Source of the DNA: Clostridia bacterium
GTDB taxonomy: Bacteria; Bacillota; Clostridia; UBA1381; UMGS1253
Assembly: GCA_045532715.1 (NCBI GenBank)
Contig: JAZSGM010000180.1
Location: forward strand, 1 to 38,205
Direction of reading: 5' to 3'
DNA length: 38,205 bases
In this document: in pieces, positions 25,520 to 38,205 of the stretch
Layout: the number at the start of each line of letters is the position of its first letter
Position numbering within the stretch: position 1 is the first letter of the stretch
Translations under genes and position numbers: made by a program
Notes under the pieces: model-generated
What the model was told of the DNA's origin: nothing
The model's input: the letters and a program-made list of their open reading frames with translations, nothing else
Database searches by the model: none

Positions 25520-26401
25520 TCATTTATACAGAATGTCCAGATTGCGCTTCAGTGTTGCATAGCCGCGCCAATAAAAGGCACGGTTTTTATAGTTTTCCCG
25601 GAAATCTGCCTCGCTTAAATCCGGCGGCAGCATACTGCAGGCTGCGGCAAATTCCGGAATGGTGGTTTGCACTGCTGTCCGGTTTTTGGGGCAGGCATTT
25701 ATGCACAGATCGCAGCCCCATGCGGAGCCGGATTTTCGGATGAGCGCGGCCTCCTGTGCGGTCAGGGTACCTTTTTTTTGCTGCAGGTATGAAATGCATT
25801 TGTAGCCGTCGAGCTGCCCTTTGCCACAAAGACCTGCCGGGCAGGCGTCTGTGCAGGCGGTGCAATCACCGCAGCTGCCGGACTTTGGCGCGTCGGCGGT
25901 TAAGGCAAGGTTGGTTACGATGCCGCCGATGAAGAACAGGCTGCCGAAATCCGGGTGCAGCAGCAGGCTGTTTTTGCCGAAATAGCCAAGACCGGCACGG
26001 TAGGCAAGTGCCTTATCGCACAGCGGTGCGCTGTCGGTAAAAATATAGCCCTGCATATTCGCATCGATTGCTTTTAATGCATCTAAAAGTCGGGTAAGAT
26101 AGTTTTTGACTACGATGTGATAATCCATACCCCATGCGTAGCGCGAAATATTTGCGTTTGCCTGCGGCGGGTTTGCATAGCAAAAGGCGCAGACAATGAC
26201 GCTTTGTGCATCCGGCAATACATTGCGCGGTGCAATGCGCGCTTCCGCCTTGCCGACGAACGGTGTGCAGCCGTCCGTCAGACGTGATAAAAGTGCGGTG
26301 TCCGCTTCGGCGCTGCAAATGCCGGTATCGCTGATGCCTAAGTCCTGCGCAAGTGCCTTGACCTGTGCGGCGGTTATGTTGTTTTTTGTGTGCTCTGCCA
26401 T
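25520..26401 (-). CDS. queG: Epoxyqueuosine reductase
   Basis: 293 aa with RYAWGMDYH, GLGYFGKNSLLL, CGDCTACTDACP, CISYL and WGCDLCINACP. Confidence 0.9.
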   Translation of the reverse strand: MAEHTKNNITAAQVKALAQDLGISDTGICSAEADTALLSRLTDGCTPFVGKAEARIAPRNVLPDAQSVIVCAFCYANPPQANANISRYAWGMDYHIVVKNYLTRLLDALKAIDANMQGYIFTDSAPLCDKALAYRAGLGYFGKNSLLLHPDFGSLFFIGGIVTNLALTADAPKSGSCGDCTACTDACPAGLCGKGQLDGYKCISYLQQKKGTLTAQEAALIRKSGSAWGCDLCINACPKNRTAVQTTIPEFAAACSMLPPDLSEADFRENYKNRAFYWRGYATLKRNLDILYK

Positions 26402-26414
26402 AGTGCGCTCCTTT

Positions 26415-27308
26415 TTATTGCTTACTTTCCAGGATTGCCTTTACGGAATGTGCATATTCCAGCGGCGACATACTTGTTTGCTTTTTGAACCAGCGTGAAA
26501 AATAATGAATGCTCTCGAAGCCGAGCATGGCGGCGATTTGCGTAATGTTATAATAGTTTTCGCGGATGAGCAGCTTGGCGCGCTCTGTTTTCAGCTGCGA
26601 AAAATACTGCATCACGCTCATACCCGTTGCACGGCGAAACATTTCCTTCAGCGCAGTTTTGCTCATCGAAACGTGTGTCATGACTTCATCAAAGTTTATT
26701 TTTTTATGGACGTTTTCTTCCATATACGCAATGACATCCAGCACGGCCTTCGGCTGTCGCTTCAGGTTCAGGGAAGAGATGCTCGCCGGTGCGTTTGTGC
26801 TCAAAGTGCCGCGCATCAGATAAATCAGAATTTCAGTCAGGTTGATTTTGATGAGCTGCTCTGCCCCGAACAGCGGCTCACTCTTGCGCACCAGCTTTTT
26901 AAGGTACGGATCGCCGAGCGGGGAGTCATAGACATTCTTTGCCTCATCAATAATTTTTGACAGCAGCAGGCGCACGTGGTTTGAGGTATCGAGTGTGCGG
27001 TTCTGGAAAAAGCGCATTTCTCTGGAACGGCAGTCAAAGGAAAGAATAATGACATTTGTTGTTGCGTTGTCCGCCGTACGAATGGAATGCCACTGGTTCG
27101 GGTGGTGAAAGGTCATCTGCCCCTGGTAGAGCGGAAAATTTCCTTTGTGTGTCATAATTTCCACGCTGCCCTTGTCCACATAGACCATTTCCCAGAAATC
27201 GTGGCTTTCGCCTTCAAATTCAAAGTAGCGCGTATATTCAAAATAATGCACCGTAATCAGTGAGTCAATCTTAAAATCTTCTTTGATTTTTGTTCTCTGA
27301 TAGTTCAT
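26415..27308 (-). CDS. AraC-family transcriptional regulator (cupin + HTH)
   Basis: 297 aa. C-terminal HTH (ITQIAAMLGFESIHYFSRWFKKQTSMSPLEY). Only 13 nt upstream of queG on the same strand. Confidence 0.9.
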   Translation of the reverse strand: MNYQRTKIKEDFKIDSLITVHYFEYTRYFEFEGESHDFWEMVYVDKGSVEIMTHKGNFPLYQGQMTFHHPNQWHSIRTADNATTNVIILSFDCRSREMRFFQNRTLDTSNHVRLLLSKIIDEAKNVYDSPLGDPYLKKLVRKSEPLFGAEQLIKINLTEILIYLMRGTLSTNAPASISSLNLKRQPKAVLDVIAYMEENVHKKINFDEVMTHVSMSKTALKEMFRRATGMSVMQYFSQLKTERAKLLIRENYYNITQIAAMLGFESIHYFSRWFKKQTSMSPLEYAHSVKAILESKQ

Positions 27309-29727: not shown

Positions 29728-29766
29728 AAAAAGGAGGTGTGGAAATTTTCCACACCGCTATTTTTG
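29728..29766. terminator. Bidirectional terminator hairpin, copy A of a repeated element
   Basis: AAAAAGGAGGTGTGGAAATTTTCCACACCGCTATTTTT. About 35/39 identical to 35318-35356. Confidence 0.8.
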
Positions 29767-31422
29767 AATTGTGACAGTGTTTTTGTTATAATCTACGGTT
29801 ATAACGGTTGCGTCGCTGTAGGTTACCGCAAATACATCTTTACGGATTTCCTTGTGTGCTTGGATGAATTCTGTTTGCAGGTGCACCAGGGTTTTGTATT
29901 CTTCATAGGCTTCCTTGATTTTAGATGCGCTGTATGCAAGCTGCTCGTCTGTGTCAATCATCAAATCCTCTTTGCCGAGCCAATCGTCCTGATGACTGCC
30001 CTCTAAGAATTTAGAATAGATATAAAACGCCGGTCTTGCGCCGTCTTCTATTACCGTAAGACGGTTTTTCGGATGCTTAATCGGATAATTTACGGTGTCT
30101 GTTGTGGAGTTGTAGAGCATAATGCCGTGGTACACAATCTGCCAGAGCGGCACGGTTTTGTCGCAAAGCGCATCCTCTGTTGCCGGCCAGGACACATAAA
30201 GACCGTAATCTAACAGACCGGCTGCAAAGTCAAAGCACCCTTCGGATGCAAAGCCGCCGAACAAATCCCGGCTGAGTTGCATGATTTCATTATAAATCTC
30301 AACCGTTTGCTTAGAATTGACCGGGTGATTTTTATCGTAGCACCACGCCGGCGGCACAACGGTCATTACATCTATGTAATGCAGTCCGGCAAAGCCTAAG
30401 TCCTTTACTTTCGGCAGTTCGGCCTTTGCAAGCTCCAATGCTTTTGCAGGGCAAAGTTTATGCGTTCTGCCGCCGCTCCAGTTTATGGTGTCCATCACCG
30501 GTGTGCCGTCCTTGCGCTTAGCAACGATATCTTCCGAGAAGGTGTCGGCAATGCTGTAGCCGTCGGTGCTGTTGGTGTGGCACACAATCTGATAGCCGTT
30601 GTTTTGCGCGTAGGCAATTAAGTGGCGCAGCCTTTCTTCACCACCGAGTTTTTCTTCGACGGGAAAGATTTGCGGCCATCTGCCGTCGTGTCCGCTTTTG
30701 TTCCAGCCGACCAGGCAAAGCTGTGCCTTGTCAACGCCTTGCGCTTTTAAAGCATCGATCAAAACGCACACGCGGTCAAAGGTGCAGGCAACGTGCATCT
30801 CGGGTTCGTTTTCGTTCGTTTGCTCAAGCACGGTTGCAGGTGCGGGTTTCCAGCCCATTCGGATGCGGATTTCCGGCGCCTTTGCTGCATAGGCCAAAGC
30901 CTCGCGTTCTTTCATTTTTTCTAAAAGCGGTTTTATGTGACCGTTATTTAGCTGATAATTTCTGTACGCAACTGCCATATCGCTGTAGGTCGCCACAGCA
31001 TCGAGTTTTAAAACGCGAATGCGGATATCCTCGTACGGACGGTCGCCGTTTAAGTAAAATCTCGGATAAATATAATATTTTTCGTCCTTTACACCGAAAA
31101 CAAGGTGAAATTCGTGTTTGAAGCCTTCTGCAATCAAAAGAAGACACAGATTTTGTTTTTTTACGCCGAAAATCGGCATTAAATCCTGCTTATACACGCG
31201 CTCTCCGTCAGGTTTTTTATTAAACAAACAAAGGCGACTGCCCTTTTTATTTGCGTCAGCAATCACATAATAGCCGTCTTCGCCTGCGGTGGCTGTAAAG
31301 CTTTCTGCAACAAAGTCAACATACGCCGCGCCGGGAGAAACCTTTTCTTTTTCCAGCGTATAGGTATTATCGCTTTTTTGAGCAGAATAAGTATTGCCGA
31401 GATTATCTGAAATCTTCCACAT
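29758..31422 (-). CDS. Glycoside-hydrolase-like TIM-barrel protein (DUF5696-like)
   Basis: 554 aa, no signal peptide. LVGWNKSGHDGRWPQIFP and GLHYIDVMT resemble GH-like barrels. Its start overlaps the upstream Fe-S gene by 20 nt. Confidence 0.5.
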   Translation of the reverse strand: MWKISDNLGNTYSAQKSDNTYTLEKEKVSPGAAYVDFVAESFTATAGEDGYYVIADANKKGSRLCLFNKKPDGERVYKQDLMPIFGVKKQNLCLLLIAEGFKHEFHLVFGVKDEKYYIYPRFYLNGDRPYEDIRIRVLKLDAVATYSDMAVAYRNYQLNNGHIKPLLEKMKEREALAYAAKAPEIRIRMGWKPAPATVLEQTNENEPEMHVACTFDRVCVLIDALKAQGVDKAQLCLVGWNKSGHDGRWPQIFPVEEKLGGEERLRHLIAYAQNNGYQIVCHTNSTDGYSIADTFSEDIVAKRKDGTPVMDTINWSGGRTHKLCPAKALELAKAELPKVKDLGFAGLHYIDVMTVVPPAWCYDKNHPVNSKQTVEIYNEIMQLSRDLFGGFASEGCFDFAAGLLDYGLYVSWPATEDALCDKTVPLWQIVYHGIMLYNSTTDTVNYPIKHPKNRLTVIEDGARPAFYIYSKFLEGSHQDDWLGKEDLMIDTDEQLAYSASKIKEAYEEYKTLVHLQTEFIQAHKEIRKDVFAVTYSDATVITVDYNKNTVTIQK

Positions 31423-32338
31423 TAAACTTCCACGCCTTTCTTTTTCGGAACGGTGTTTTAAACTGTTTTGTTAAAACGCCCTTTTCCTCTAAATGTATGT
31501 AGCATGCCATATCGCAGGCACGACCGCAAATCGAGCACTGATATGCGTGCTGTGCCGGTGGATAAAAATAGATTTTATCCAAAATGGCTCTTGCCGTTTC
31601 GGGGGTAACCTTTGCTTCGCCGGCAATGATTTCAAGGCGGTTTTCAAACTCTGCAAAGGCATCAGGCGGCATAAACGGATTCTTTGTGCCGTTTGCGCCG
31701 TTGTAGTATACTGCGCACTGCCAGGCATCAATCTTGCCGACATCATCAATGGCGCCACCCGGGCAGGCAGCTTTGCATTTGCCGCATTTGTCGCACAGAT
31801 GCGGCGTTATGATTTCGGATTCTTCAAGTTCTGCATCCGTCAGGATAAAGCAGTAGCGCACCATCGGACCGAAGGCATCGGTCAAAAGCGCACCGTGAAA
31901 GCCTTTTTCGCCGAGACCGCATTGGATTGCCGTGTCGAGAAAGTCAATCTGCAGCTCCTGCGTCTTACCGCGGAAGATGGAATCGTATGCCACTTCGGGG
32001 TTAGTGCTGTTTTTTTCTGCCATAATCTGCTGATGGCGGCGTTGGGGGAGGGCGATGTAGCCCATCTCCTCAAGCTGCATTGCCACCTTTAGCTGTGCCA
32101 TCGGCATCACGGTTTCTTCCATATTTTCCACGGCCATGGTGGTGTACTGATAATAGGTGCTGCCCTCTTCGATGCCGCGATACATTCCGCGAAGCAGGCG
32201 AAACGCAAGTCCGATGACCGTTTTCGTTTTGGGCAGAATCTGAAAAATCGGGTTGTTTTTTTCAAAACGGCTTGCCGGTGCGAAACCGACGATGTCTGCG
32301 CCGTTTTTCATTGCAAGTGCGGTAATTGTCTCTCTCAT
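31403..32338 (-). CDS. QueG/reductive-dehalogenase-like di-[4Fe-4S] protein, paralogue 1
   Basis: 311 aa. GLGEKGFHGALLTDAFGPMVRYCFILTD, CDKCGKCKAACP, WQCAVYY, CSICGRACDMAC. ATGA overlap with paralogue 2. Confidence 0.7.
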   Translation of the reverse strand: MRETITALAMKNGADIVGFAPASRFEKNNPIFQILPKTKTVIGLAFRLLRGMYRGIEEGSTYYQYTTMAVENMEETVMPMAQLKVAMQLEEMGYIALPQRRHQQIMAEKNSTNPEVAYDSIFRGKTQELQIDFLDTAIQCGLGEKGFHGALLTDAFGPMVRYCFILTDAELEESEIITPHLCDKCGKCKAACPGGAIDDVGKIDAWQCAVYYNGANGTKNPFMPPDAFAEFENRLEIIAGEAKVTPETARAILDKIYFYPPAQHAYQCSICGRACDMACYIHLEEKGVLTKQFKTPFRKRKAWKFNVEDFR

Positions 32339-33231
32339 AATTCTTCTGCCCCCTTCAGATGCTTATAGCAGGCAATGTCGCACGCTCTTGCGCATAGGCA
32401 CGGCGCATAGCCCCACTGGGTATTCGGCAAGAAATGCAATTCCTTATATATTTCGCGTGCCGATTGCGCATCGAAGCGCTTTTCACCGTTTAAAATTGCA
32501 TCGCGCTCGGGGTGCCCTTTTAAAAAGTCGTCCGTGATAAAGGGGTTGGATTTGTGCGCGCCCTTGTAATACACACTGCATTGCCAGGTATCCAAACCGT
32601 CTGTGCTGATTGCGTTACCGGGGCACGCCTTGATGCACGCGCCACACTTGTCGCAGACAGCTTCGGTCAGTGGCTCGTCCGGCTCGAGAGGCATATCGGT
32701 GATGATAAAACAGTAGCGCATAAACGGACCGTATTGCTTGTTGATGATTTTGCCGTTTAAGCCCGTTTCGCCGAGACCGCAAGCCTTTGCTGCTTTGCCG
32801 AAATCGATAATTACGTCCGGTGCGGGCTTACCTTCCTCTACCGCTTCCGCATAAATGAGCTCGTAAGTATCTGCCACTTCGGGGTTGGTTGTTTTATCGC
32901 CCTTGATGCGCAGGTTGGGGACCGCCTTTTGCAGGCAAGCATCGTAGCCGGCGTCTTCAATCATGCCGCCGATTTTTAAAAGGAAAATCTCTGCCATTTC
33001 CTCGTCAAAGTATTTTACGCCCATGGTGGTGTAGGTATAATATTGCTTGCCGCGGTGCATTGCAAGATACAGCCCCTTCGGCACAGCAAAGCCGAAGCCG
33101 ATGATAGCTTTTGCATTCGGCAGAATGCTTTTTGGGTCTCTTTGCGGATTTTCTTCGTCATATACGCGCCCAATGCCACATATGGTCGCGCCGAGCGCCT
33201 TGGCTTTCTCTTTTATATATGCAGATGTCAT
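32335..33231 (-). CDS. QueG/reductive-dehalogenase-like di-[4Fe-4S] protein, paralogue 2
   Basis: 298 aa. GLGETGLNGKIINKQYGPFMRYCFIITD, CDKCGACIKACP, WQCSVYY, CLCARACDIAC. Confidence 0.7.
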   Translation of the reverse strand: MTSAYIKEKAKALGATICGIGRVYDEENPQRDPKSILPNAKAIIGFGFAVPKGLYLAMHRGKQYYTYTTMGVKYFDEEMAEIFLLKIGGMIEDAGYDACLQKAVPNLRIKGDKTTNPEVADTYELIYAEAVEEGKPAPDVIIDFGKAAKACGLGETGLNGKIINKQYGPFMRYCFIITDMPLEPDEPLTEAVCDKCGACIKACPGNAISTDGLDTWQCSVYYKGAHKSNPFITDDFLKGHPERDAILNGEKRFDAQSAREIYKELHFLPNTQWGYAPCLCARACDIACYKHLKGAEEL

Positions 33232-33254
33232 TTTTTACACCTTCTTTATAGGAT

Positions 33255-34337
33255 TTATCTGTTTAATTTCCACGGTTTTTTTGTGCGAAGCGGTTGATGG
33301 AATTTTCCTTCTAAGCAGCCGCCCTTTTTTTCAAGCACGGATACGCAGGCGCGGATACAGCCGCCGCACTTTGCCATATTGTAGCCGACCCAGCTGGGAA
33401 AGTATTTGGCAAGTGCGCCGTAGACCTTCATAATTTCCTGCTCGTCGGCAATGTCCGTCACGCCTTCCATCAGGTTCAAATCACCGTTTTCATTTTTGTC
33501 CCACACATCCTTGGGTACAAAAGGATTGTAGTATCTTCCGGCGTGCGTGTAGAAGGCATAGCAGCGCCACATATCAATGTCGCCCCACTCTATGGTTTTG
33601 CCTTCTAACTGAATGGACACGGTTTTACCTGAGCCGATGGCGGGGATGCAACCGCCCGGACATTCGCGTACGCAGGCACCGCACTTGCGGCACAGCGGCT
33701 CGCCGTTATAGATTTCGTCGTATTCGTCAAATTCCGCATCGGTAAATAAAAACGCAACGCGCTGCAGCGGACCGAACTGCGGCGTTAAAAGCATTTTGCT
33801 CCAACCGATTTCGCCGAGCCCGCACGCCACGGCGGCAATGCGGAACTGAAACTGCAAATCCGGTGCAACGCTGCCCTCTCTTGCAGGGCGCGTAAACTGC
33901 ACACTTCGGTGGTGCGCTGTGGAGGTTTTGGCATTTTCGTTTATCTCGATTTGCTCCTCTGGGGAGAGAGTATTGCCCGGAGAGCCGTCCATATCGGACA
34001 CAACGCCTCTGGCACCGGTGTTTCGATAGACAAACGCCTCATAGCCGTGGTCTTCGATGACCTTGCCGACATGATACAGCACGGCAGGGGCATAGATTTC
34101 GTTGATGCCGGCATACGCCATAGAGGGGTACTGGAAAAACTGCGTGCCCTCCTCAATGCCTCTTTGCACACCGCGCGGAATTCTGAAAACAAAGCCGATA
34201 CAGCTTTTCGCCTCGGGAAATAGAAATTGCGGATTCATTTCGTCGGGTGCACCGTCAAATCGGGACATTGGTGCAATGCCGCAAGCATCCGCTCCGGTAT
34301 CGAGTGCAATTTCTTTTATGAGCTTACTGGAAATCAT
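33255..34337 (-). CDS. QueG/reductive-dehalogenase-like di-[4Fe-4S] protein, paralogue 3
   Basis: 360 aa from the ATG at 34337 (AGGAGG SD); the 53 extra N-terminal codons in the ORF track look spurious. GLGEIGWSKMLLTPQFGPLQRVAFLFTD, CRKCGACVRECP, WRCYAFY, CGGCIRAC. Confidence 0.7.
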   Translation of the reverse strand: MISSKLIKEIALDTGADACGIAPMSRFDGAPDEMNPQFLFPEAKSCIGFVFRIPRGVQRGIEEGTQFFQYPSMAYAGINEIYAPAVLYHVGKVIEDHGYEAFVYRNTGARGVVSDMDGSPGNTLSPEEQIEINENAKTSTAHHRSVQFTRPAREGSVAPDLQFQFRIAAVACGLGEIGWSKMLLTPQFGPLQRVAFLFTDAEFDEYDEIYNGEPLCRKCGACVRECPGGCIPAIGSGKTVSIQLEGKTIEWGDIDMWRCYAFYTHAGRYYNPFVPKDVWDKNENGDLNLMEGVTDIADEQEIMKVYGALAKYFPSWVGYNMAKCGGCIRACVSVLEKKGGCLEGKFHQPLRTKKPWKLNR

Positions 34338-34469
34338 ATCCTTGCCTCCTGCTTTTTTTAAATTACAAAAAACAAACTTTTCTTGAGTTGATTTTATCAC
34401 GAATATATGATAATATAAACACAGAAAACAAACTAAAATTTTAATAAAACAAACATTTTGGAGGGCACA

Positions 34470-35318
34470 ATGCACATTGCAGATATCAATCCGCATATAC
34501 GATTTGCCGAAGAGATTACCTATGCATTGAAAAACCGCAGGTCCTATGTAAAGGATTGTCGTATATTTTATGTTTTGGGCGGCAGAGGCAGCATACGGAT
34601 ACAGGAGAAGGAATATATATTAAAAGAGAATACTTTGTTTTATTGTGCAGGCGGGCAGGAATACAGCATCAATGCCGAAGATTATCTGCATTTCTATGCT
34701 TTAAACTTTGATTTGTCGCAGGCGCACAGAGCGCTTGTCACGCCCTTCGCTCCGGTGGATTTGCAAACAACAAGTCCGACGGGCGTTGTGGATTTGTGCC
34801 TTGTTGAAGACAGCGGGTTTTTAGATTCATTTTTCATTGCGGAGCATGCGGGGGAGTTTAAAAACGGTGTAGCGACTATTGTTAAAGAATTTGCTACGCA
34901 GCAGCTTTTTTTCAGAGAAACCGCCGGCGCGGTGCTGAAGAAAATATTGATTGATTTGCATAAAATGAATACGGATGCTGAAAATAATTCAGCCTCCGCC
35001 GTGCAAAAAATTACGGAATACATACAGCTGCACTACATGGAAGAGATTAAAAACAGCGCTTTAGCAGAGCTGGTGGGGTATCACGAATACTATTTAAATC
35101 GCTGCTTTGTACAGTATACCAGTATGAGTATGCACAAATATGTTTTAAACCTGCGTATTGCAGAGGGCAAGCGACTGCTGCTCAATACCGATTTATCCGT
35201 TGCGAATATTGCTGTACAGGTGGGCTTTAACAGCGCGGCGCATTTTTCCGCTTATTTTAAAAAGGAAACAGATGCTTCGCCGTTAGAGTACAGAAGCAGC
35301 TTTAAACATAGGATATAA
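34470..35318 (+). CDS. AraC-family transcriptional regulator (cupin + HTH)
   Basis: 282 aa from the ATG at 34470 (GGAGGG SD). C-terminal HTH (VANIAVQVGFNSAAHFSAYFKKETDASPLEY). Divergent from the Fe-S operon. Confidence 0.9.
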   Translation: MHIADINPHIRFAEEITYALKNRRSYVKDCRIFYVLGGRGSIRIQEKEYILKENTLFYCAGGQEYSINAEDYLHFYALNFDLSQAHRALVTPFAPVDLQTTSPTGVVDLCLVEDSGFLDSFFIAEHAGEFKNGVATIVKEFATQQLFFRETAGAVLKKILIDLHKMNTDAENNSASAVQKITEYIQLHYMEEIKNSALAELVGYHEYYLNRCFVQYTSMSMHKYVLNLRIAEGKRLLLNTDLSVANIAVQVGFNSAAHFSAYFKKETDASPLEYRSSFKHRI

Positions 35319-35356
35319 AAAAGGCGGTGTGGAAAAATTCCACACCGCTCATTTTT
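35318..35356. terminator. Bidirectional terminator hairpin, copy B of the repeated element
   Basis: AAAAAGGCGGTGTGGAAAAATTCCACACCGCTCATTTTT. 11-bp stem, AAA loop. Confidence 0.8.
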
Positions 35357-35393
35357 ATTTTACGAGAATTGTAATTTCTGCTGTTTTCGGAAG
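35352..35393. repeat. 42-bp perfect direct repeat, right copy (native 3' end of the lyase gene)
   Basis: Covers the stop codon plus the last 12 codons (LPKTAEITILVK) of the minus-strand gene. Confidence 0.95.
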
Positions 35394-38205
35394 GGCGCCT
35401 TTTCGAACAGCGGTTGCCGTAATTATAGCGGTACCGGCTTTCTTTAAAGTGCATGTGCCGTTTGCATCAATACTGATGATAGAAGCATCCGAGCTTGCAT
35501 AAGTTACCGTATATGTGCTCAGGTCTACCGTCGCGCCTGCAGGATCGGTTGCAGAGATGTTCACGGTCATTGTGTCGCCGACCTTGCCTTCCGTATCGGA
35601 AAGCTTGAAGATGGCATTCCATGCCTTCTGGTCTTCTGCTTCCATTGTAGCATCTGCATAGAAACGGACTTCTGCGTAGCTGTTATATGCGCTGCCATCG
35701 CTGTTGGAGATGGTGTTGAATCGTACATATCTTGCACGCACATCGCCGAGTGCAAACACGGTCGGACCATCTTTAAGCTCGGTTGTAATGCTTGGCAGAA
35801 GTGTTGTCCATGTCTTGCCGTCGTCGGAGATATCCACGCTTAATGTAAATGAACGCTTGTTGGAGCCGGTGGTTGAAAGTGCAAAGGAGTGCAGCGGCTT
35901 TGCTTCGCCAAAGTCAAAGCTGATCCATTGTTTGCCTTCGCCTGTCCATCTGTTTTCCATACCGGAGGAAATTACGCCGTCTGCGATACCCCACTTCGGA
36001 TATTTGCCCCAGCCGGTGGAGGAGTCGATGTCCATAATCTGAATGGAGGTCGGGTGATCCGGAATGCCGGTGCTGCCTGCTACAAGCAATTCCATCTTGG
36101 AAATAGAGCCTGCACCACCGGTGCCTGCAATGCCTTCAAACGGATTTGGTGTAAAGTGAACATTGTAGTTTACGCCATCGATTGTCACTACAGCCGGGTT
36201 GCCCTGCGCTATGGAAGCTGCGTATGCGCTACCGTTTGTCAAAGCGGTAACCTCGCCAGCAGGCGCATTGACGTAGTAGTCTTTCATTTCCGGACGGAAG
36301 CTGATTTCGTTTGCGCCGGCAAGGATGCGGATGTCGAGCATCTTGCAGGCATCTGCAATTGTATTTTCACTGTAGGCAATATCTTCATCGGAAATTATGA
36401 TAAGACCTCTGTCATCCCAGAATACCTTCTTACCGAGTGCTTCTGCAAGTGCGCGAAGCGGGATGAGCGTTCTGTCGTTATACGTCTGTGCCGGAACATC
36501 CAACATTACGGTTTGTCCGTTCACATTCATTTCCTTGGAGCCGAGTACCATACGGATGACATTGTCGCCGCAGGTGATATCTACAGTCTGTGTTGCCTCT
36601 GTCCAGTCGACTCTTGCACCGAAGTTTTCGGCAATAAATCTTACCGGTACGAGTGTTCTGCTGTTTTCCGTAAACGGATAAACATCCTTGTTGGCGGTAT
36701 CTACATACGTACGTACGCCCTTTGCATATGCGGCAGGGGAGCCGAGCTTGAGTGCGACTACATTGCCGAGGCGTTCCTCGATGCGCTTTGTTTCGCCTTT
36801 GTTTACACTCCAGTCTGCCATCGGCGTTACCACTGTTACATCATTCGGGATGCCTTCGCCTGCGCGCAGCGGAATAAATTCTACGCTCAGCGTCATTTCT
36901 GTGATGTTGTTTACGTGGATTGCGAGCTTTTTATCGCCGGTGTAAGCTGCCATGAACTCGCCCTTCTGCTTTGGCGGATTCGGGCTCGTCGGAAGCGGCT
37001 CAATCGGCATAACGGAAAATGCTGCATCCGTTGGACCTGCGTTGATTCTCACATACAATCTCTTACCGTTGATTTCCAGGAGTGCACCCTTGCCGTCAGC
37101 GGAAAGGGTGATGTCGGCATTGGTGTGCATAAACCAGTAAACTTCGGACGGAACTTTTGTCGAAATTTCGTCCTGCATGACGATTCTTGTACGGTTGTTT
37201 GTCATCATCATACCGCGGTGATGCTTGTTTAAGTCATCGCGTGTACGCGTCATATCTAAAATGCCGTAAGAACCGTTTTCTGCAGAATCGGAGTCGAGCA
37301 ATACTGCGAAACCGTCGTTTTTCTGTCCCGGACCTGCATCCGGATTGATGGTAATGGTGTTATTACCTTCTGTTCTTCTGTAATAGTAGTCCGTACCTTC
37401 GCCGTCGTAACCGCTTTCGATTGTGTAGGTGTTGGAAACGGAGTCTTTACCGGTTAAAAGTGCAAAACGCTCGCCCTCCCAGTCGAGTACGAAAGTACCG
37501 AGACCGTTGTAGGCGTGGAAGGTTTCGTTGTCGCCACCCTGCATTGCCGCAAAGAGCATTGTTTCTCTGTCCCAGCTCGAACGCATCGAGATACCATTCG
37601 GTCCATACTGGCGGTCGTTTTTGTAGAACTTATCGAGTACAAAGTCTGCAGAGCTTACCTTTTCCGGATTGTAGTACACAATCGCTACGCAGGCATCCAT
37701 GCCGCCGTAGAGCATAGATGGATCACTCTGATTTTTCGTCAGTTCATACCATGCGTACTGCGGCTGGTCATATCTGTCTGCAATTCTTAAAAAGGCAGGG
37801 GACGAAACACGACCGCAGGTGGATGCATTATAGTTAAAGCATTTTGTTGCACCGTCATAGTAAATGACGTGGTCAGGTGTCTGTGCAAAGTTTGCCTGAA
37901 GTGCGAAGTTTAAGCAATCCGGCAAGGTTTTGCCCGGTGCGATGCATTCTTCAAAGCTTGCAACGCTGGCAATCAGGTTGCCGACGCCGTAGTTCCAGTA
38001 TTCCATGGATTCCGCAAAACCGCCGTCGTCGGAGATTTCTACGAAGGTGTTCGGCAGATTCTGGGAAATCTCGCGGAAGATATATTCCGAAACGTTCGGC
38101 ACGAGATCGTTGATTGCGATTGCGAACATAACATAGTCGGTCTGTACGCCCATCGCCTGGTTGTGGTATGCATGAAGCACTGTGTAGCCGTTGGAGAGCA
38201 GACCT
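35355..38205 (-). CDS. Large multidomain polysaccharide lyase (heparinase II/III-like), 5' end outside the window
   Basis: The frame is open to the window edge. Heparinase II/III-like region (FHAYNGLGTFVLDWEGERF), two copper-amine-oxidase-N-like repeats (TLVPVRFIAENFGARVDW, TLIPLRALAEALGKKVFW), a discoidin/F5-8 type C-like region (WISFDFGEAKPL, ARYVRFN) and a C-terminal Big_2-like domain. Confidence 0.7.
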   Translation of the reverse strand, partial: GLLSNGYTVLHAYHNQAMGVQTDYVMFAIAINDLVPNVSEYIFREISQNLPNTFVEISDDGGFAESMEYWNYGVGNLIASVASFEECIAPGKTLPDCLNFALQANFAQTPDHVIYYDGATKCFNYNASTCGRVSSPAFLRIADRYDQPQYAWYELTKNQSDPSMLYGGMDACVAIVYYNPEKVSSADFVLDKFYKNDRQYGPNGISMRSSWDRETMLFAAMQGGDNETFHAYNGLGTFVLDWEGERFALLTGKDSVSNTYTIESGYDGEGTDYYYRRTEGNNTITINPDAGPGQKNDGFAVLLDSDSAENGSYGILDMTRTRDDLNKHHRGMMMTNNRTRIVMQDEISTKVPSEVYWFMHTNADITLSADGKGALLEINGKRLYVRINAGPTDAAFSVMPIEPLPTSPNPPKQKGEFMAAYTGDKKLAIHVNNITEMTLSVEFIPLRAGEGIPNDVTVVTPMADWSVNKGETKRIEERLGNVVALKLGSPAAYAKGVRTYVDTANKDVYPFTENSRTLVPVRFIAENFGARVDWTEATQTVDITCGDNVIRMVLGSKEMNVNGQTVMLDVPAQTYNDRTLIPLRALAEALGKKVFWDDRGLIIISDEDIAYSENTIADACKMLDIRILAGANEISFRPEMKDYYVNAPAGEVTALTNGSAYAASIAQGNPAVVTIDGVNYNVHFTPNPFEGIAGTGGAGSISKMELLVAGSTGIPDHPTSIQIMDIDSSTGWGKYPKWGIADGVISSGMENRWTGEGKQWISFDFGEAKPLHSFALSTTGSNKRSFTLSVDISDDGKTWTTLLPSITTELKDGPTVFALGDVRARYVRFNTISNSDGSAYNSYAEVRFYADATMEAEDQKAWNAIFKLSDTEGKVGDTMTVNISATDPAGATVDLSTYTVTYASSDASIISIDANGTCTLKKAGTAIITATAVRKGALPKTAEITILVK

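Follow-up and report, generated by a model that had tools for sequence, protein, structure and literature searches.

A conserved trio of QueG/RdhA-like iron-sulfur paralogues beside an AraC-type regulator in gut and rumen Clostridia

The 38,205-nt stretch analyzed here (contig JAZSGM010000180.1, hereafter the window, with all coordinates counted from its first letter) carries three tandem paralogous genes, named A, B and C, which encode QueG/RdhA-like iron-sulfur modules and are followed by the gene for a DUF5696 protein and preceded by a divergent AraC-family regulator gene. Based on sequence, profile and predicted-fold comparisons, the trio is assigned to a separate, unannotated family inside the class-III B12/[4Fe-4S] reductase fold, being neither QueG nor RdhA. 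The family and its architecture appear to be new, the superfamily being known, and the trio most likely encodes an inducible cytoplasmic reductase with modules that assemble.

Gene structure and family placement of the trio

The open reading frames (ORFs) of A, B and C lie on the minus strand at exactly the positions where an earlier note on this DNA had placed three tandem genes (Table 1). The junction sequences agree with the spacing described there: A and B are 23 nt apart, with GAAGGTG as a ribosome-binding site in the spacer; the stop of B and the start of C share an ATGA (…GAATTATGAGAG); and the 3' end of C runs 20 nt into the start of the DUF5696 gene. Inspection of ORFs and ribosome-binding sites also located AGGAGG 7 nt ahead of the start codon of A.

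Table 1. Genes and putative regulatory elements in the window.
Feature	Coordinates	Strand	Description
Paralogue A	33255..34337	-	360 aa; ATG at 34337; QueG/RdhA-like module
Paralogue B	32335..33231	-	298 aa; QueG/RdhA-like module
Paralogue C	31403..32338	-	311 aa; start overlaps the stop of B (ATGA)
DUF5696 protein	29758..31422	-	554 aa; GH129/GH101-like (beta/alpha)8 glycosidase, predicted
AraC-family regulator gene	34458..35318	+	divergent from A; alternative ATG at 34470
Putative AraC operator	34369..34454	-	three GTTTGTTTT copies: 34446-34454, 34425-34433, 34369-34377
Candidate sigma-70-like promoter of A-B-C-DUF5696	34391..34419	-	consensus scan 9/12 plus extended TG; pattern match only
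Bidirectional intrinsic-terminator hairpin	29736..29756	.	9-bp stem, T-runs on both strands; one base past the DUF5696 stop
Bidirectional terminator hairpin	35323..35349	.	after the AraC gene; near-identical to 29736-29756
queG	25520-26401		293 aa; TIGR00276 216.8 bits (cut-off 200); PF08331 2.6e-18
Large protein	35355-38180	-	Hepar_II_III_C, Cu_amine_oxidN1, F5/8 type C and Big_2 domains; beside the AraC gene; N-terminus probably lost at the contig end

Each paralogue contains a core motif (GLGEIG…GPLQRVAFLFTD in A, GLGETG…GPFMRYCFIITD in B and GLGEKG…GPMVRYCFILTD in C), a first cluster motif (CRKCGACVRECP, CDKCGACIKACP and CDKCGKCKAACP, respectively), a single-Cys motif (WRCYAFY, WQCSVYY and WQCAVYY) and a second Cys motif (CGGCIRAC, CLCARACDIAC and CSICGRACDMAC, in the same order); all motifs that had been quoted as evidence of a QueG/RdhA core were located. 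The eight Cys of A (216, 219, 222, 226, 259, 324, 327 and 331), B (193, 196, 199, 203, 218, 280, 284 and 288) and C (182, 185, 188, 192, 208, 271, 275 and 279) fit the pattern predicted to bind two [4Fe-4S] clusters (CxxCxxCxxxCP … C … CxxCxxxC). The three proteins are mutually 29-40% identical, and the similarity is not due to chance because of the BLASTP E-values between them (1e-53 for A-C, 1e-65 for B-C and 6e-40 for A-B) and of each against the QueG encoded in the window (6e-8 to 3e-5).

The curated models were not reached by any of the paralogues. The QueG equivalog model TIGR00276 (cut-off of 200 bits) gave 20.2, 52.5 and 36.7 bits for A, B and C, and the reductive dehalogenase (RDH) subfamily model TIGR02486 (cut-off of 160.35 bits) gave 37.4, 59.0 and 42.7 bits. 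TIGR02486 is the top NCBIfam match of all three, over model positions ~139-262 only, and the matches to both models are confined to the GLGE…TD core and the first cluster motif. In Pfam, A, B and C had sub-threshold Fer4 matches only, and none of them matched PF08331 (DUF1730), unlike the QueG of the window. As reported before, no twin-arginine (TAT) or signal sequence was found at the N-termini (MISSKLIKEIALD…, MTSAYIKEKAKAL… and MRETITALAMKN…), which have no RR motif, and the ORF list of the window has no small membrane-protein/rdhB-like gene in the trio operon.

The homology nonetheless extends along the entire chain. In hhalign, a 28-sequence family alignment and the QueG of the window were matched with a probability of 97.5% in 187 columns that reach from the N-terminus as far as the WxC motif, and the family profile matched the solved structures of PceA (83 bits, core and first cluster), QueG (54 bits) and NpRdhA (48 bits). 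In this alignment P38, E92, G95, G152, G157, G168, R172, T178 and seven Cys are invariant (B numbering), and an acidic residue is universal in the 'PD(V/L)' loop before GLGE (D139 of B, in 'PDV'), which is the same loop that carries the catalytic Asp134 and Arg141 of QueG (PMC5175355). A residue-exact match to the catalytic Asp was rejected, HMMER and hhalign differing by four positions, and because the two aligners disagree on the residue, equivalence is claimed for the loop only.

The DYH motif belongs to the active site of QueG (PMC4646009, PMC5175355), and its Tyr, the single active-site residue common to QueG and RdhA (PMC4646009), lies above the corrin as Tyr101 in QueG and Tyr246 in PceA. 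In place of DYH, the trio family has a specific insertion of ~30 aa (RG..RGIEEGT.YY.Y), partly lost in B, with a near-invariant Tyr (Y67 of B, in YY.Y) at the start of a long helix, which no aligner pairs with the QueG Tyr. The lack of the DYH region of QueG in the trio, already pointed out in the earlier note, was thus seen both in Pfam (PF08331) and in hhalign. A has an additional insertion of roughly 40 aa and a beta-hairpin insertion.

The AF2 model of B (pLDDT 92, pTM 0.89) matched 46 chains of the PDB at E<=1e-3 in Foldseek, all of them QueG or RdhA with a probability of 1.00, followed by the B12 chaperones CblC and CblD, with no flavin nitroreductase in the top 50 matches. The model has the domain order predicted for the class-III cobalamin/[4Fe-4S] reductase superfamily, to which QueG, RdhA and, at a greater distance, CblC belong: first a nitroreductase-like B12 domain and then a ferredoxin module for 2x[4Fe-4S]. 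The homology to the QueG/RdhA core proposed earlier holds in sequence, profile and fold comparisons alike. Because the trio fails the thresholds of both QueG and RdhA and has no DUF1730/DYH region, TAT signal or RdhB anchor, it forms a separate family; the profile searches place it in no characterised non-reductase family. Current annotation hides this family because homologues of A are labelled 'hypothetical protein' by NCBI and one homologue of B (P0056) is labelled QueG by JGI.

Similarly to QueG (TIGR00276; PDB 5d08, 5d6s), which gives the best Foldseek E-values for B (about 3e-10), the trio is predicted to be cytoplasmic and to have an N-terminal B12-type alpha/beta domain and then a ferredoxin module, sharing the GLG…G…T(D/N) core and the CxxCxxCxxxCP + C + CxxCxxxC pattern; unlike QueG, it consists of three paralogues under AraC control and not of a single housekeeping gene. 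RdhA proteins (TIGR02486; PceA 4uqu/8q4h; catabolic NpRdhA 4ras/6zxx) belong to the same superfamily, and NpRdhA combines a catalytic module with a vestigial copy of the cobalamin domain (PMC12219181), a two-module build conceptually like the multi-module architecture of the trio family. Unlike RdhA, the trio has no TAT signal, RdhB or reductase domain, its modules are far shorter (~300 aa, TM ~0.45), and its genomic context is unrelated to organohalides. The next-best fold matches, CblC/MMACHC-CblD/MMADHC (PDB 9mrs, 3som, 5ujc), are marginal (E 4e-3 to 4e-2); they include a documented heteromer of two paralogous modules of this fold around B12 (MMACHC with MMADHC, 9mrs), but, unlike the trio, they are eukaryotic trafficking proteins without a ferredoxin module.

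Distribution, partner genes and regulation

One genome per GTDB species was searched for relatives of B, and at least 173 genomes matched; the best 80 of these were used for locus comparisons. All 80 loci come from metagenome-assembled genomes of gut or rumen Clostridia (Oscillospiraceae, Acutalibacteraceae, Lachnospiraceae and similar), obtained from ruminants, deer, rabbit, chicken-type sources and humans. Wherever the contig permits, A, B and C are all present and in that order, without exception, and the gaps between B and C are mostly 0-20 nt. Orthologues are 80-91% (A), 75-89% (B) and 67-84% (C) identical to the window copies, and all eight cluster Cys are kept in 72/72, 72/72 and 64/64 of them, respectively, whereas in the same loci the AraC regulator is only 26-58% and the DUF5696 protein only 40-71% identical. 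Because identity within the clades is 67-91% and between clades 29-43%, the triplication long predates these lineages, in keeping with the old triplication suggested in the earlier note. The 80-91% identity of A, where AraC has only 26-58%, indicates that the trio is under exceptionally strong constraint and was not recently transferred. No match to A was found in the plasmids of PLSDB (tblastn).

Partner genes were counted by ORF clustering in the 80 loci and recounted with tblastn in the 51 with adequate flanks. The most constant of them is X1 (314 aa), between AraC and A in 47/51 loci (92%); the others are the divergent AraC gene upstream of the module in 45 (88%), DUF5696 at varying positions and in two subfamilies in 30 (59%), a 108-aa cupin between A and B in 27, and a YgjV-type membrane protein and a radical-SAM/SPASM 'metalloenzyme maturase'-like gene in four each. 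The cupin separates A and B in about half of the loci, and sometimes the DUF5696 or YgjV gene stands between them. The 38-kb window encodes none of X1 (also missing in 4/51 loci), the cupin, YgjV and the radical-SAM protein; lacking X1 and the small cupin, it carries a reduced form of the module: AraC / A-B-C-DUF5696. Synteny of the trio with AraC and DUF5696 therefore recurs in other genomes, and the refuting condition of the earlier note, a trio not syntenic with a GH/AraC in any other genome, does not apply; its link to a glycosidase recurs in those 30 loci, but as an optional element whose position varies.

X1 has four invariant Cys (C79, C188, C192 and C221), one distant and three in a CxxxC…C group. 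Neither Pfam nor NCBIfam gave a domain match for it, and a profile of 41 X1 sequences had no match among solved structures. Four of the 41 members weakly resemble U32 peptidases (best E 0.0023; PDB 5d88 with E 0.19), and this family (UbiU/UbiV, TrhP, RlhA) is a possible relative of X1, with nothing significant. The 4773 homologues of X1 are all without a Pfam domain or name. X1 nearly always adjoins A-like genes, and this extends to distant clades (40-43% identity), where it is also paired with single A-like copies; examples in related loci are L071:5968-6912, L001:5555-6466, L083:1483-2523 and L087:8031-9026. The radical-SAM/SPASM gene lies between X1 and A (L012:3862-4848, L031, L032 and L066) and resembles TIGR04317, 'tungsten cofactor oxidoreductase radical SAM maturase' (248 bits, below the cut-off of 380); its insertion is a hint of a maturation step, either post-translational or of a cofactor.

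A profile of A/B/C searched against 1.8 billion representatives at 50% identity found a wider family of 195 clusters at E<=1e-30, in which the number of modules varies. Some loci have a single A-like gene with X1 and AraC (L083-86) or with X1 (L088), and A-like plus X1 appears to be the minimal unit. L087 has A-like and B/C-like genes with X1 and a further A-like copy, near DUF6259, Hepar_II_III_C, peptidase M14, MFS, PALP and SSF genes, and in L090 two paralogues have an IclR regulator, an AraC fragment and a sulfatase in their vicinity. In related clades three modules are fused in one chain of 727-813 aa, the middle module being without its Cys. The AF2 model of one fused protein (P0169) is a compact three-module body (pTM 0.90), and NpRdhA is the best structural match of this fused relative. 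The fusion represents an independent triplication because its modules 1 and 3 are both A-like. Its use as a Rosetta stone for A-B-C was rejected, the triplication being separate and the arrangement not superposable on NpRdhA (TM about 0.22). In L081 the fusion protein occurs with another A-like gene in a cluster of sugar-ABC-transporter, 744-aa FAD oxidoreductase, DegT-type aminotransferase and URO-D genes. The URO-D-family gene (L081:10904-12019) lies between the fusion and the further A-like gene; the URO-D fold is that of corrinoid-dependent methyltransferases.

The DUF5696 protein matches DUF5696 (PF18952) with 3.1e-46 and 158.6 bits (cut-off of 25.6), DUF6259 with 2e-9 and GH101 with 1.5e-7. 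Its best solved relative is the GH129 alpha-N-acetylgalactosaminidase NagBb (5wzn, E 1.6e-9, residues 144-436), ahead of the solved GH101 enzymes (E about 3e-4). D435, E478 and W398 of NagBb, the first two of which we take to be the catalytic pair, align with the identical D351, E394 and W of INWSGGR in the window protein. W398 is a sugar-stacking platform in NagBb (PMC8106489). Like NagBb, which is intracellular and matches across the catalytic barrel, the window protein has no signal peptide; unlike GH129 and GH101, it is filed by Pfam as DUF5696, and the identity is low. It is probably an active cytoplasmic retaining alpha-glycosidase. In one DUF5696 group, with 54-71% identity to the window copy, the gene overlaps C at its end just as in the window, and in a second group, with 40-47% identity, it is located elsewhere in the module, so translational coupling of DUF5696 to C is found in the window and its closest relatives.

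The product of the AraC gene has an N-terminal cupin-type ligand domain and a C-terminal double helix-turn-helix (HTH), with matches above the cut-offs to HTH_18 (80.3 bits, 1.3e-22), HTH_AraC (53.4 bits) and AraC_binding (24.8 bits, 2e-5). The sequence GTTTGTTTT occurs five times in the window (0.99 expected), three of them in the 120-bp AraC/A intergenic region, with the first two spaced 21 bp. The same sequence was found in 42/53 AraC-X1/A intergenic regions of relatives, mostly as a 21-bp-spaced pair beside the AraC gene, and is thus a conserved direct-repeat putative operator of the AraC type, which strengthens the earlier proposal of a dedicated regulator. The hairpin at 29736-29756 is predicted to mark the end of the operon. 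Near-identical hairpin elements of ~38 nt (29728-29766 and 35318-35358; core GGTGTGGAAAwwTTCCACACC, common flanks aaaaagg…gct.attttt) bracket AraC + A-B-C-DUF5696 exactly. No further copy of this pattern was found in the 38-kb window (0 expected) or in the 80 related loci, and the pair may delimit a cassette or represent a REP-like terminator specific to the lineage.

Proposed function and competing explanations

Here it is proposed, tentatively and with a little less than even confidence, that the locus is a self-contained inducible unit in which A, B and C form a cytoplasmic hetero-oligomer passing electrons to a corrinoid or equivalent site for reductive elimination. The AraC-type regulator would bind the 21-bp-spaced GTTTGTTTT direct repeat and control one A-B-C-DUF5696 transcript, with terminators bounding the unit. 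The three proteins, each with full ligands for two [4Fe-4S] clusters, would assemble as one hetero-oligomer, as suggested by the invariant gene order, the translational coupling and the three-module fusions of related clades; for paired paralogous modules in this fold, NpRdhA and MMACHC-MMADHC are precedents. Low-potential electrons would then move through the clusters to a base-off corrinoid, or to an equivalent site in the nitroreductase-like domain, where a two-electron reductive elimination may cleave a small molecule at a C-O, C-N or C-halogen bond. Electron transfer via clusters to a corrinoid for two-electron reductive elimination is the mechanism that all characterised relatives suggest for the trio, which may be cobalamin-dependent, as raised in the earlier note. 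In the window, the GH129-like glycosidase may liberate this molecule, bound before as an alpha-linked glycoside, or act on it at a later point; in distant clades DUF6259, Hepar_II_III, sulfatase or sugar ABC transporter genes likewise adjoin family members.

Several observations weigh against this proposal. The QueG DYH motif has no aligned counterpart in the trio family (hhalign), the TM-scores of the B model to solved QueG/RdhA are only 0.41-0.50, and, class-III enzymes having no cobalamin-binding sequence motif (PMC4646009), corrinoid binding is unreadable from their sequence. A scan with the Rfam gathering thresholds had no match at all in the window and six related loci, and none to a cobalamin riboswitch, and riboswitch support for B12 use was dropped because of this empty scan. 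The fusions are evidence that family modules associate but not evidence of an association of A, B and C, and clades with one A-like gene plus X1, or with two paralogues, indicate that a heterotrimer is not obligatory in the family. The DUF5696 gene is gone from 41% of the well-flanked loci. Neither a transporter nor an electron-donor gene lies within the module, and because the near-universal X1 is missing from the window, the operon may be incomplete here or depend on a gene elsewhere in the genome. The module also has no sugar kinase/isomerase, and the 'sugar-utilisation operon' of the earlier note was therefore an overstatement. A more specific version of the proposal is regarded as doubtful: a cytoplasmic heterotrimer of A, B and C that would bind one to three corrinoids and as many as six [4Fe-4S] clusters, forming a fourth functional class-III branch besides dehalogenases, QueG and CblC, working in most genomes with the U32-like Fe-S protein and performing O2-independent reductive C-O/C-N cleavage on a glycoside-derived dietary or host metabolite.

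Of the alternatives, the one that survives best, though unlikely, is that A, B and C are independent isoenzymes, each a monomer or homodimer with its own substrate or step in one pathway and with no complex. QueG is a monomer (PMC5175355), all the paralogues retain the cluster ligands and the loop acid and could each be catalytic, family members occur single or paired elsewhere, and a cupin, sometimes a DUF5696 or YgjV gene, splits A from B. However, co-presence and order are invariant in the 80 loci and B and C are tightly coupled, three modules are predicted to pack confidently in one chain in related clades, and the conservation is unusually high, as for interface-rich complexes.

Somewhat less probable again is that the fold and the two [4Fe-4S] clusters have been retained and the corrinoid lost, the trio being a plain Fe-S (or flavin/Fe-S) partner in electron transfer or reduction, for instance for X1 or another enzyme. 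This would fit the DYH Tyr without an aligned counterpart, the lack of a B12 riboswitch in the loci scanned, and a fold derived from flavin-binding nitroreductases in which, as CblD shows, B12 binding can be lost. The tight pairing with X1, seen in 47/51 loci and with single A-like genes as well, would suit an enzyme of two components in which X1, with its four invariant Cys and weak U32 similarity, is the catalytic one. Nevertheless, the significant Foldseek matches are to B12 proteins only, with flavin nitroreductases absent from the top 50, the loop of the QueG catalytic Asp has a universal acidic residue, and the trio persists without X1 in the window and in at least four related loci.

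The remaining readings conflict with the failed family thresholds and with the genomic context. True reductive dehalogenases, catabolic and non-respiratory, acting on dietary or host organohalides are highly improbable: the family profile favours PceA (83 bits) over QueG (54), TIGR02486 is the top NCBIfam match, and cytosolic RdhAs without TAT/RdhB exist, e.g., NpRdhA, but the scores of 37-59 bits against a cut-off of 160 cover the core and first cluster motif only, TM is ~0.45, and the neighbours are AraC, a GH129-like enzyme, a cupin and a U32-like protein, with no dehalogenation genes among them. Extra QueG-type enzymes of RNA modification or of queuosine salvage or processing are scarcely credible either; QueG has the best Foldseek E-values, JGI calls one B homologue QueG, and the weak U32 similarity of X1 recalls the RNA hydroxylases TrhP and RlhA, but TIGR00276 gives 20-52 bits against 200, PF08331/DYH is lacking, a true QueG is encoded 5 kb away, and inducible AraC control with a glycosidase partner is unlike housekeeping tRNA modification. 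A defence-system reading was dropped, PADLOC having returned no match.

The literature searched contains no description of the trio family or of its three-gene arrangement, many subscription-journal papers being outside the searchable set, and DUF5696 is mentioned in no full-text paper of that set; the earlier statement that no characterised pathway fits agrees with this.

Other genes of the window and significance of the family

The bona fide queG pointed out earlier 5 kb from the trio passes both TIGR00276 and PF08331. It lies 13 nt downstream of the gene of a second AraC-family regulator (26415-27308) on the same strand, an unusual neighbour for a housekeeping tRNA-modification gene. On the other side of the module, the product of 35355-38180 is, because of its domains, likely a surface polysaccharide-lyase-like enzyme; a Hepar_II_III_C gene likewise adjoins the distant two-paralogue + X1 + DUF6259 cluster of L087. 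Positions 1-24000 contain AraC and LysR regulators, an MFS transporter, SASA esterase, GH43, alpha-amylase and GH88-like genes, as well as DUF5693, DUF5662, an AtuA-like gene, a two-subunit Fe-S fumarase, AdhE and MurJ; this content is typical of the genome of saccharolytic Clostridia. No genes for cobamide biosynthesis or uptake were found in this part.

To our knowledge, class-III B12/[4Fe-4S] proteins have only three established functions, the reduction of organohalides, that of epoxyqueuosine and the processing of B12. Further class-III families were predicted in the work on the QueG structure, which expected them to be difficult to recognise for want of a B12 sequence motif (PMC4646009), and the locus described here points to such an unrecognised family, widespread in gut and rumen Clostridia and strongly constrained. 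It offers experimental handles in a recognisable putative operator and regulon and in recurring partners (the U32-like Fe-S protein, the cupin and the GH129-like glycosidase). If the paralogues do form a heteromer, this architecture would be new for class III, and if the trio binds a cobamide, it would represent a new B12-dependent gut function and a new sink in cobamide cross-feeding. Were it a heterotrimer of reductive cleavage, the gut microbiome would have a reaction type so far undescribed.

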